A stretch of 64,000 nucleotides of DNA from Octopus vulgaris. Its lineage: Eukaryota. Every line of letters starts with the position of its first letter. Position 1 is the first letter of the stretch. Position numbers and translations under genes: made by a program. Where the stretch lies: NCBI GenBank assembly GCA_951406725.2, contig OX597825.1, positions 25,234,001 through 25,298,000 of the forward strand. The letters are read 5' to 3'. Below the pieces are notes generated by a model that was not told the DNA's origin, searched no databases, and was given only the letters and a program-made list of their open reading frames with translations. This document shows, in pieces, positions 30,456 through 35,402 of the stretch.

Positions 30456-31110
30456 TACCGAGTCTGGTAACCAACGAAGGAACCAACGAAGCAAGTTTTT
30501 TCGTCCCACCACTCTCACTTTCACCAACTCACTTCCTTTTCTCTATAACAACACCATATCTCTTTCTGATTTCTGTATACTGCTATGAGATCGTGTATAT
30601 ATATTTTTGTATGTGGAAGCACTCCGTCAGTTACGACGATGAATATTTGTATGTATAAAGTAAAGAATGGAATTGGTAAAATACGAACTACAAGCCAATA
30701 GTGTATATTTTAGTAAGCTTATTGTGTCATTTTTACCTTTTCTTTCCCTTTTTACCCTTTCTTTCCCAGTGGTATTGCTTTTGATGACATATCAAGAGGT
30801 CCTCGGTTCGAATCCGAGAGTCACCTCTAGTTTGATTCCACCAACTTTTTATTTCAATTTTTCCGAAAATTATCCGTTTTTAATAGCACATTATAAGTAA
30901 AGAAAAGGAAAATTGATTTGACCGGCATTGTTGGTGACATAAGGTATGTGTTAGAGACATTGGGCAGCAGATTGATAGTCCTGAGATTTAATCCGAGTGT
31001 CCCCTTCAGTTTGGTTTCATCAGTATTTTATTTCAATTTTCCGAAAATATCCGATTTTAGTGGCACATTATTAGTAAAGAAGAGGAAAATTGCTCGAAGC
31101 AGATGTGGTT

Positions 31111-31182
31111 GGGGATATAGGTCAGTGGTAGAGCATTCGACTGCAGATCGAGAGGTCCTTGGTTCGAATCCGAGTGTCCCCT
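31111..31182 (+). tRNA. tRNA-Cys(GCA) variant with D-stem mismatch (possible pseudogene)
   Basis: GGTC instead of GCTC in the D stem; T stem CTTGG/CCGAG pairs. Confidence 0.6.
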
Positions 31183-31645
31183 CCAGTTAGAATCCACCAA
31201 CTTTTTATTTCAATTTTCCGAAAATATCCGATTTTAATGGGACATTATTAGTAAAGAAAAGGAAAATTGATTTGACCGGCATTGTTGGTGACATAAGGTA
31301 TGTGTTAGAGCATTCGACTACAGATCGAGAGGTCCACGGTTCGGATCCGAGTGTCCCTTCCAATTTGATTTCACCAATTTTTTTTTATTTCTGTTTTCTG
31401 AAAATTATCCGTTTTTAATGGCACATTATGAATAAAGAAGCGGAAAGTTGCTCGAACCGGACTCGTTGGTGATATAAGCTCAGTGAGGAAGCATTGGACA
31501 GCAGATTGAGAGGTCCTTGGTTTTAATCCGAATGTCCTCCTCCAGTTTGATTCCATCAATATTTCATTTCAACATTCCAAAAATATCCGATTTTAATGGC
31601 ACATTACGAGTAAAGGATAGGAACATTACTCGAATGGGCATTATT

Positions 31646-31717
31646 AGGGATATAGGTCAGTGGTAGAGCATTCGGCTGCAGATCGAGAGGTCCTTGGTTC
31701 GAATCCGAGTGTCCCCT
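31646..31717 (+). pseudogene. tRNA-Cys variant (G1A, D-stem mismatch)
   Basis: AGGGATATAGGTCAGTGGTAGAGCATTCGGCTGCAGATCG... Confidence 0.6.
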
Positions 31718-32002
31718 CCAGTTAGAATCCACCAATTTTTTATTTCAAGTTTCCGAAAATATCCGATTTTAATGGGACATTATTAGTAAAGAAAAGGAAA
31801 ATTGATTTGACCGGCATTGTTGGTGACATAAGGTATGTGTTAGAGCGTTCGACTGCAGATCGAGAGGTCCCTGGTTTTAATCCTTGGTTTTAATCCACCA
31901 ATCTGATTCCAACAATATTTGATATTGATTTTCCAGAAAATATCCGCTTTTAATAGCACATTATTAGTAAAGAAGGGAAAAATTGATCAAGCAGATGTGG
32001 TT

Positions 32003-32074
32003 GGGGATATAGGTCAGTGGTAGAGCATTCGACTGCAGATCGAGAGGTCCTTGGTTCGAATCCGAGTGTCCCCT
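32003..32074 (+). tRNA. tRNA-Cys(GCA) variant with D-stem mismatch
   Basis: Identical to the 31111 copy. Confidence 0.6.
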
Positions 32075-32539
32075 CCAGTTAGAATCCACCAACTTTTTAT
32101 TTCAATTTTCCGAAAATATCCGATTTTAATGGGACATTATTAGTAAAGAAAAGGAAAATTGATTTGACCGGCATTGTTGGTGACATAAGGTATGTGTTAG
32201 AGCGTTCGACTGCAGATCGAGAGGTCCCTGGTTTTAATCCTTGGTTTTAATCCACCAATCTGATTCCAACAATATTTGATATTGATTTTCCAGAAAATAT
32301 CCGCTTTTAATAGCACATTATTAGTAAAGAAGGGAAAAATTGATCAAGCAGATGTGGTTGGGGATATAGGTCAGTGGTAGAGCATTCGACTGCAGATCGA
32401 GAGGTCCTTGGTTCTAATCCTTGGTTTTAATCCACCAATTCTGATTCCAACAATATTTGATATTGATTTTCCAGAAAATATCCGCTTTTAATAGCACATT
32501 ATTAGTAAAGAAGGGAAAATTGATCAAGCAGATGTGGTT

Positions 32540-32611
32540 GGGGATATAGGTCAGTGGTAGAGCATTCGACTGCAGATCGAGAGGTCCTTGGTTCGAATCC
32601 GAGTGTCCCCT
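32540..32611 (+). tRNA. tRNA-Cys(GCA) variant with D-stem mismatch
   Basis: Identical to the 31111 copy. Confidence 0.6.
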
Positions 32612-33213
32612 CCAGTTAGAATCCACCAATTTTTTATTTCAAGTTTCCGAAAATATCCGATTTTAATGGGACATTATTAGTAAAGAAAAGGAAAATTGAT
32701 TTGACCGGCATTGTTGGTGACATAAGGTATGTGTTAGAGCGTTCGACTGCAGATCGAGAGGTCCCTGGTTTTAATCCTTGGTTTTAATCCACCAATCTGA
32801 TTCCAACAATATTTGATATTGATTTTCCAGAAAATATCCGCTTTTAATAGTACATTATAAGTAAAGATGAGGAAATTTGCTAGAGCCCGACTCGTTGGTA
32901 ATATAAGCTCTGTGGTAGAGCCTTCGACTGCAGATCGAGAGTTTCTCGTTCGAATCCGAGTGTCCCCTCCTGTTTGATTCCACCCATTTTTTATCTCATT
33001 TTCCCGAAAATTATTCGTTTTTAATAGCACAATATAAGTAAAGAAGAGGAAAATTGCTCGACTGCATTGCTCGAGAGGTCCTTGGTTCGAATCCGAGTGT
33101 CCTCTCCAGTTTGATTCCACCATTTTAAAATTTCCTTTTTGTCGAAAAATATCCGTTTTGAATGGCATATTATGAGTAAAGAAAAGGAAAATTGCTCGAA
33201 CCGGCATTGTTGG

Positions 33214-33816
33214 GGGGATACAGCTCAGTGGTAGAGCATTCGACTGCAGATCGAAAGGTCCTAGCTTCGAATCCGAGTGTCCCCTCCAGTTTGATTCCCT
33301 CAGCATATTATTTCAATTATCCGAAAAACATCTATTTTTAATTACACATTATGAGTAAAGGAGAGGAAAATAGCGCGAACCGGCATTTTTGGGCATATAT
33401 CTCAGTGGTAGAGCATTCGACTGCAGATCGAAAGGTCCTAGCTTCGAATCCGAGTGTCCCCTCCAGTTTGATTCCCTCAGCATATTATTTCAATTATCCG
33501 AAAAACATCTATTTTTAATTACACATTATGAGTAAAGGAGAGGAAAATAGCGCGAACCGGCATTTTTGGGCATATATCTCAGTGGTAGAGCATTCGACTG
33601 CAGATCGAAAGGTCCTAGCTTCGAATCCGAGTGTCCCCTCCAGTTTGATTCCCTCAGCATATTATTTCAATTATCCGAAAAACATCTATTTTTAATTACA
33701 CATTATGAGTAAAGGAGAGGAAAATAGCGCGAACCGGCATTTTTGGGCATATATCTCAGTGGTAGAGCATTCGACTGCAGATCGAAAGGTCCTTGGTTCG
33801 AATACCACTGTCTCCT
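33214..33816 (+). pseudogene. Four tRNA-Cys pseudogenes at 177-bp period (33214, 33391, 33568, 33745)
   Basis: T stem broken (CTAGC/CCGAG); GGGCATATATCTC 5' changes. Confidence 0.75.
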
Positions 33817-34097
33817 TTACATTGATTCCATTAATATTTTATTTCAATTTCCCGAAAATTATCCGTTTTTAATGTGACATAATGAGTAAAGTGGAACCAA
33901 ATCGATCGGACCGGCATTGTTGATGATATATGGTGTGTTGTAGAGTGTTCGATAGCAGATCGAGAGTTCCATGGTTCGAATTTGAGTGTGCCCTCCAGTA
34001 TGATTCTAACAATATTTGATATGGATTTTCCGAAAATATCCGAATTTACGGCACATTATTAGTAAAGAAGAGAAAAATTACTCGAACTGGCATTCTT

Positions 34098-34169
34098 GGG
34101 GATATAGCTCAGTGGTAGAGCATTCGACTACAGATCGACAGGTCCTCGGTTCGAATCCGAGTGTCCCCT
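34098..34169 (+). tRNA. tRNA-Cys-like gene with ACA anticodon
   Basis: GGGGATATAGCTCAGTGGTAGAGCATTCGACT-ACA-GATCGACAGGTCCTCGGTTCGAATCCGAGTGTCCCCT; A and B boxes intact, U27:C43 mismatch. Confidence 0.65.
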
Positions 34170-34576
34170 CCAGTTTGATTCCACTAATTTTTTATTTCAA
34201 TTTTCCGAAAATTATCCGTTGGTGATATAAGCTCAGTGAGAAAGCATTGGGCAGCGGATTAAGAGTTCCTTGGTTGTAATCCGATTGTCACCCCCCAGTT
34301 TGATTCCATCAGTATTTCATTTCAATATTCCGAAAATATCCGATTTTAATGGGACATTATAAGTAAAGAGGAAGAAAATTCCTTGGACCGGAATTGTTGG
34401 TGACATAAGGTGTGCGGTAGAGCGCTCGACTACTGATCGGGAGGTCCCTGGTTTTAATCCGAGTGTCATCTCCACTTTTGAGTCCAATAAAATTTCATGT
34501 CGATTTTCCGAAAATATCTGATTTTAATGGCACATTATGAATCAAGAAGAGAAAAATGGTTCGAATTATTGTTGTT

Positions 34577-34648
34577 GGGGATATAGCTCAGTGGTAGAGC
34601 ATTCGACTGCAGATCGAGAGGTCCTCGGTTCGAATCCGAGTGTCCCCT
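34577..34648 (+). tRNA. tRNA-Cys(GCA), array-B isodecoder
   Basis: Full cloverleaf; T stem CTCGG/CCGAG is a compensatory U-A replacing the C-G of array A. Confidence 0.88.
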
Positions 34649-35402
34649 CTAGTTTGTTTCCACCAATTTTTAAATTTCACTTTTCCGAAAATTATCCGTT
34701 TTTAATAGCACATTATAAGTAAAGATGAGGAAAATTGCTCGAACCCGACTCGTTGGTAATATAAACCCTGTTGTAGAGCATTCGTTTGTAGATCGAGAGG
34801 TTGTCGTTTCGAATCCGAGTGTCCCCCTCAGTTTGATTCCACCAATTTTTTATTTAAATTTTCCGAAAATTATCTGTTTTTAGTAGCACATTATGAGTAA
34901 AGAAGAGGAAAATAGCTCGAACAGGACTCGTTGGTGATATAAGCTCAGAGACAGATCATTGGGCAGCAGATCCAGTGTGACTACGTATTAAGACAGCACT
35001 GCGTATAGATAAACACACAGCTAATCTAGACATACACATAGGATTAATACCGAACCGAATAAACTGTGGATACACCGTAAAAATGCCACAATAACTGCGG
35101 TATTCTTTTTAAGAATGTATCTCATATAGACGTAGATGTATACTACTGTGCAGGCATGCCATATAGACGCATATATATATTATCCGATATTACCTTAAGT
35201 TACTGAACTGCAGGAGAAAAAGCTATAGGATATGATATTTCGTTAAAGACTTTCTGAAAAGAACCGCAGTAAAATTAAATGTTTTCGGCGCAGAATTGAA
35301 ACAGGTTATCCGATATGGACGCAACCTTTCTGCGATTCATTACTGGACCATCAGGTTACACAAAAATAATCAGATAAACAGAATGAAATTTGATAATGCA
35401 GT

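Follow-up and report, generated by a model that had tools for sequence, protein, structure and literature searches.

Mostly broken tRNA-Cys gene copies form a tandem array at a single Octopus vulgaris locus, probably through neutral turnover

The idea that tRNA genes seed satellite DNA has been in print since at least 1986, when Benslimane et al., to go by their title, reportedly proposed that short plant satellites descend from a tRNA gene. tRNA-related satellites have also been described in Harttia (PMC11955569). The tRNA arrays of Entamoeba are genome-wide, make up more than 10% of the genome and contain no clear pseudogenes, and their structural role is debated (PMC2652664). In the human genome, the 1q23.3 tRNA variable number tandem repeat (VNTR) has a 7.3-kb unit with conserved tRNA genes and a conserved CTCF motif, on the basis of which a boundary role has been proposed for it (PMC4041453). 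The Ser-Tyr-Tyr array of Arabidopsis expanded in multi-unit blocks through unequal crossing-over, contains many putative pseudogenes, has been interpreted as drifting neutrally and numbers 27 units in one taxon vs 12 in its sister taxon (PMC2886086); it is transcriptionally silent (PMC7544208). The Arabidopsis array is the closest known counterpart of the locus described here, a tandem array of tRNA-Cys-derived units in a 64,000-nucleotide stretch of Octopus vulgaris DNA (hereafter the window; G000:C12:25234001-25298000). Our literature search, in which few subscription papers were covered, returned no paper on an octopus nuclear tRNA array or on this locus.

We refer to the array as sub-array B. 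The original prediction of about 25 units was correct, provided that the two truncated end units are counted.

30767..34978, + strand: sub-array B, 25 head-to-tail tRNA-Cys-derived units, both end units truncated

Each unit consists of a 72-bp body and a spacer of ~105 bp, giving a total of 4.2 kb. We consider it very probable that sub-array B is a single-locus tandem array of tRNA-Cys genes, with one unit intact and most broken, that is undergoing neutral turnover in a redundant cluster. Nothing indicates that the broken copies are retained for a role in chromatin. The original prediction described tRNA bodies in decay. Most bodies are indeed broken, but one is intact and several are nearly so.

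34577..34648, + strand: intact tRNA-Cys(GCA) isodecoder; A box and B box both intact, one T-stem pair compensated
34098..34220, + strand: unit shortened to 123 bp by a 54-bp spacer deletion, with a near-intact body

None of the 21 stem pairs of unit 34577 is broken, a T5 run lies 19 bases downstream, and the unit scores 72.5 bits on the Rfam tRNA model vs 70.2 for the canonical gene; judging from its sequence, it is likely to be a functional gene. Because this unit keeps all stem pairs, both boxes, a T5 run and a high score, the founder of sub-array B was likely a working isodecoder, and the units descend from an isodecoder with a spacer of ~105 bp. The body of unit 34098 (34098-34169) has an ACA anticodon, one broken anticodon-stem pair and both promoter boxes, and scores 68.3 bits; if transcribed, it would represent an unusual Cys isoacceptor. 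The type I units carry an A-box/D-stem lesion, with a single D-stem pair broken in 31111, 32003 and 32540 and two pairs broken in 31646. Their B box is intact, their anticodon is still GCA, and a T5-T6 run follows ~20 bases downstream (59.4 bits). In type II units, seven pairs are broken, the B box is dead and 13 bp are locally duplicated. Members of the 33214 family have lost two T-stem pairs as well as the G that opens the B box, and most other units lack both boxes. The B-box consensus was kept in 9 of the 24 units that have the region, in one of nine dead lineages and in 4 out of 11 young near-identical copies.

To examine selective retention, we set aside near-identical duplicates and partial units (11 of the 25) and sorted the remaining 14 by presence or absence of a lesion that arose early and is shared: one inserted base after position 8, in most cases together with G3T. 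In the five lineages without this lesion, mean pairwise divergence was 0.078 in the body vs 0.219 in the spacer (permutation P=0.0003), and part of the array therefore preserved its tRNA structure over a large share of its history. In the nine dead lineages with the lesion, the corresponding values were 0.27 and 0.228 (P=0.88). A TFIIIC-bound boundary element would be expected to keep its B box conserved above background after tRNA structure has been lost. We detected no conservation in the nine dead lineages of either the B box (0.235 vs 0.228 for the spacer, P=0.55) or the A box (0.333 vs 0.228, P=0.91). CpG decay was not significant (35/278 vs 82/869, P=0.14). We relied on these pairwise permutation tests since Fisher tests against a reconstructed ancestor count shared lesions repeatedly. 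The original prediction had suggested a tRNA-derived satellite in formation, possibly kept for chromatin function (TFIIIC B-box binding, insulation or nucleosome phasing) or as a small-RNA source, and had named uniform divergence across the unit and an absence of other loci among the marks of a simple dead cluster. Retention was unsupported: dead units diverged evenly across box, body and spacer, and a genome-wide search with the B spacer yielded no other locus, all 16 matches lying inside sub-array B, as did all six matches of the B-type T-arm variant (both counts are lower bounds, as the DNA search skips very common words).

Further investigation revealed that one- and two-unit blocks had been duplicated recently, whether or not their tRNA or promoter was intact.

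31646..32896, + strand: young dimer block, in the order I-II-I-II-(I/II hybrid)-I-II
31111..31286, + strand: extra type I unit, 100% identical to 32003
33214..33793, + strand: young triplication, at 177 bp, of a unit with T-stem and B box broken, followed by the first 49 bases of another copy

The two dimer copies that start at 31646 and 32003 are alike except for 4 of 357 bases and share a 308-bp exact run, as the original prediction of a 357-bp dimer at 31646, 32003 and 32360 required for the first two positions. Unit 32360, however, is a hybrid of types I and II, with type I resuming 180 bp further on, so the dimer phase shifts; the third 357-bp dimer begins at 32540, making ~3 dimer copies in all. 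Similarly, a broken unit was indeed re-amplified at 177 bp, with a 393-bp exact run at that offset, but the full copies are 33214, 33391 and 33568 rather than 33391, 33568 and 33745. Units 33391 and 33568 are identical and 33214 differs at three bases, whereas 33745 is identical to the triplicated unit in its first 49 bases only (35 of 177 bases differ). Seven of the 11 young copies lack a B box. Outside these young blocks, where identity reaches 95-100%, independent units are ~68-94% identical.

The period of 176-181 bp, predicted to be constant, was found in 20 of the 22 spacings between full unit starts. The exceptions were 123 bp, at the shortened unit 34098, and 317 bp, at a fused pair of units; both deletion junctions show short microhomology.

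32897..33213, + strand: two units (32897 and 33060) fused by a ~38-bp deletion (163 + 154 = 317 bp)
25257..27312, + strand: array A, a row of 13 canonical tRNA-Cys(GCA) genes whose spacers are homologous to those of sub-array B but shorter

Arrays A, D and E have spacers homologous to that of sub-array B (the score was reached by 0-5 of 500 shuffles), and theirs are 9-24 bases shorter. The periods in array A are 149-167 bp, as predicted, except for one 259-bp interval that contains a gene fragment. The 178-bp period is already present in the intact unit 34577 and was therefore inherited from a functional gene and is older than the decay, which also speaks against functional retention.

Parts of the stretch are present in twelve runs from six studies, and we compared seven of these runs (X1, X2, X3, X5, X8, X9 and X11), leaving aside X4, X6, X7, X10 and X12, whose shares were small. 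Short-read contigs in repeats can be chimeric, any sample could be the source of the assembly, and our statements on individual differences cover those listed (40 of 149 and 40 of 86). X8, X9 and X11 (labels B, C and D) have most listed differences in common, and we treated them as one related lineage. Between X11 and the assembly, array pieces, which overlap by ~60 bases, differed at 50 of 1256 positions (4.0%) and a flank-dominated piece at 27 of 544 (5.0%; Fisher P=0.37); thus, contrary to the proposed functional retention, the array diverges like its flank. In X8, X9 and X11, one contig fits 31783-32117 loosely (36-39 differences) and then runs directly into 33690. Its first unit is type II-like, without the 13-bp duplication and with no listed change at the dead B-box positions; its second unit, going by the differences listed, is marked as a 33214-family member by its diagnostic bases, the B-box lesion among them. 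These contigs of the related lineage thus show a single, already broken unit where this assembly has three copies. We infer that the units were probably broken before the lineages split and amplified afterwards in this lineage. The original prediction that amplification continued after loss of tRNA structure was thus upheld, as single units in the related lineage's contigs already hold the B-box-breaking change. Contigs of X8, X9 and X11 also span 34100-34603 with two small gaps, and the 123-bp unit is common to both lineages; as the related lineage has it without a large gap, the broken period persisted. At its left end, the X8 contig passes into sequence resembling window 29753-29782, which belongs to a dispersed repeat matched at least 40 times in the genome; X8 therefore has a deletion or an interruption in the left part of the array.

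Within label A, the dimer contig had a depth of 55.2 in X3 vs 8.5-19 in neighbouring contigs, and of 249.5 vs 49.8-78.9 in X2. This suggests that the dimer is real and present in ~3-4 copies in these two samples, although contig depth is not itself a copy number. For the triplication, no contig of X1, X3 or X5 covered ~33237-33728 and none of X2 covered 33207-33548; contig holes prove nothing, and the triplication may be an assembly artefact or a private allele. X1, X3 and X2 hold a variant of unit 32897 that is absent from the assembly, with 16-19 differences and two gaps over the contig; ten listed changes fall within 36 bases at window 32947-32992, and the flanks match. This variant is likely a conversion patch or an unassembled paralogue. 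We set aside three candidate joints: 34460 to 32440 in X1, possibly chimeric because both spacers share 33 exact bases; 34192 to 32996, explained by unit 34577 outside the stretch compared; and 31453 to 34099 in X5, with a depth of only 2.7.

Sub-array B is one part of the main tRNA-Cys cluster of the genome. ARAGORN called 30 tRNA genes in the whole window, 29 of them as Cys. In the 2.8-Gb genome searched (227 contigs), canonical tRNA-Cys(GCA), scored as an exact 48-base match, occurred 29 times, with 26 of the 29 on C12 at 25.259-25.420 Mb, and ~30 near-canonical tRNA-Cys genes lie outside sub-array B. Array A supplies redundancy for sub-array B. The stretches adjoining the window contain seven further single genes and no second type-B array. 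Among the 20 top-scoring tRNA loci of an Rfam search (L021-L040), 19 were not tandem and only the sub-array B locus was; this sample (63 of 656,489 candidates scored) is too small to give the frequency of tandem arrays.

Taken together, these results point to birth and death as the likely history of the array, in which unequal crossing-over and gene conversion carried dead units along. A functional founder gene would have been amplified in tandem, and the other near-canonical copies would have relaxed selection on sub-array B. Misaligned exchange between neighbours would copy whole units, which would keep the period, build dimers and carry dead units along, while microhomology deletions and flanking repeat insertions would erode the array. 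The body tree and the spacer tree disagree, and several units are mosaic (for example, 32360, 32716 and 30767), as expected from unequal exchange and conversion. Several points weigh against neutral turnover. The retention test has low power, as the B box comprises nine sites and the lineages share ancestry, and B-box retention in one of nine dead lineages is compatible with the 0.36 expected under neutrality (P=0.17). Unit length was held at 176-181 bp over ~23% pairwise divergence, the two deletions aside, with 28 indel events vs 350 substitutions among units, for which the neutral comparison consists of short cross-lineage pieces only (three gaps per 50 substitutions in the array and 0 per 27 in the flank piece). 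The young dimer multiplied a unit with an intact B box (four copies), and an AA/TT/TA periodicity of 10 bp was seen in one B unit out of four (P=0.02, uncorrected). Finally, the cross-lineage evidence comes from short-read contigs, with the risk of chimerism noted above.

Some of these points would fit an array retained as a chromatin element, whether it offers TFIIIC a B-box platform, insulates or phases nucleosomes next to the active cluster. Nine of 24 units keep the B-box consensus, including one per young dimer copy, 20 of 22 spacings are regular, the array persists in a lineage ~4-5% diverged, and a boundary function has been suggested for a human tRNA tandem repeat (PMC4041453). We nevertheless regard such retention as very unlikely, since the dead lineages lack box conservation, the B box is dead in 7 out of 11 young copies, the 123-bp unit is common to the related lineage, and array divergence is not below that of the flank. 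In addition, three of four units lack the 10-bp signal at P<0.05 (P=0.126, 0.206 and 0.068, with 0.40 for an array A unit; the test used crude block shuffles). Transcription of the near-intact units into regulatory tRNA-like RNAs or fragments seems the least probable explanation: the type I units have the B box, anticodon, T run and score for it, but they carry the A-box/D-stem lesion, most other units lack both boxes, and clustered tRNA genes in Arabidopsis are silent, with fragments low or absent (PMC7544208).

It is also unlikely, if somewhat less so, that sub-array B is a nascent satellite, in which the amplification of dead units sustains itself and is set to outgrow the gene cluster with no function needed. 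This would account for the two independent young expansions of broken units that are missing from the related lineage's contig, for the higher-order dimer and for the dimer depth in X3 and X2. However, the array is confined to one locus and amounts to just 25 units (4.2 kb), independent units are not homogenised, and the expansions amount to 3-4 copies and are offset by deletions; moreover, the mechanism is the same as that of neutral turnover and the outcome alone differs. The array would resemble a first step of satellite formation, with a regular monomer and a higher-order repeat, yet it lacks the high copy number, the long or multiple arrays and the homogenised monomers of a satellite. A bolder combination, to which we give little credence, is a satellite at birth, passing from an intact gene through promoter-dead units to a dimer amplified since the 4-5% split, in which the type I units, one per two nucleosome lengths, form a TFIIIC platform bordering the main tRNA-Cys cluster; were TFIIIC binding or phasing on dead units true, the locus would offer a small, datable model of tRNA genes seeding satellites or boundaries. 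A tRNA-derived short interspersed nuclear element (SINE) leaves dispersed copies, and a SINE origin was rejected because the spacer and T-arm matches found, which are lower-bound counts, are confined to the array. A protein-coding origin was rejected, and weak Rfam miRNA matches to the units, far below the cut-off, were disregarded. Neutral turnover thus makes the locus an example of tRNA array birth and death in which dead copies were re-amplified into a higher-order repeat without sign of selection. The dimer and the nucleosome-like period arose without such a sign, and neither therefore needs a function to arise.

Elsewhere in the window, the cluster includes further tRNA-Cys genes.

35540..35930, + strand: another three tRNA-Cys genes, their spacers of the array A type; one base is inserted in the middle gene
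56530..59015, both strands: further tRNA-Cys genes of the same cluster, two on the + strand and four on the - strand (one of the latter degenerate)

An inverted piece of a tRNA-Cys 5' half lies at 35440-35467, ~70 bases upstream of gene 35540, and a 38-base 5' tRNA-Cys gene fragment at 56402. The + and - groups share an upstream flank in inverted orientation (56280-56600 and 58940-59290), which suggests an inverted duplication. A palindromic element resembling a miniature inverted-repeat transposable element lies a short way upstream of array A, at 24500-24780; its long inverted ends enclose 22-bp internal repeats. Degenerate telomere-like hexamer runs on opposite strands (22514-22605 and 23874-23913) bound a 1.4-kb stretch, whose ends may be those of a mobile element. 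A 7.6-kb AT-rich minisatellite with a 32-bp repeat (38567-46186) switches strand at 43021 and 45698 and has inverted arms of ~2.7 kb at ~95% identity. Two open frames, 54996-55808 (- strand, 270 residues) and 19870-20271 (+ strand, 133 residues), look like retroelement fragments, possibly Penelope-like.

Among the described systems, Entamoeba likewise has tandem tRNA genes, whereas the octopus array is a single small locus of mostly pseudogenes. Like the human 1q23.3 VNTR, sub-array B is a copy-number-variable tandem repeat containing tRNA genes for which a chromatin role has been proposed, but its dead units lack a conserved motif. The plant satellites of 1986 and those of Harttia are described as abundant, whereas the octopus array has 25 units at one locus with an intact gene left. 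The Arabidopsis Ser-Tyr-Tyr array shares with it head-to-tail tRNA genes with homologous spacers at one locus, a mixture of intact genes and pseudogenes with redundancy elsewhere, expansion in one- or multi-unit blocks, hybrid units and lineage-specific copy number. Silencing has been shown for the Arabidopsis array. Unlike the Arabidopsis array, that of the octopus has one isoacceptor, short 178-bp units and deep decay, and its dead units were amplified on their own, as in the 177-bp triplication.

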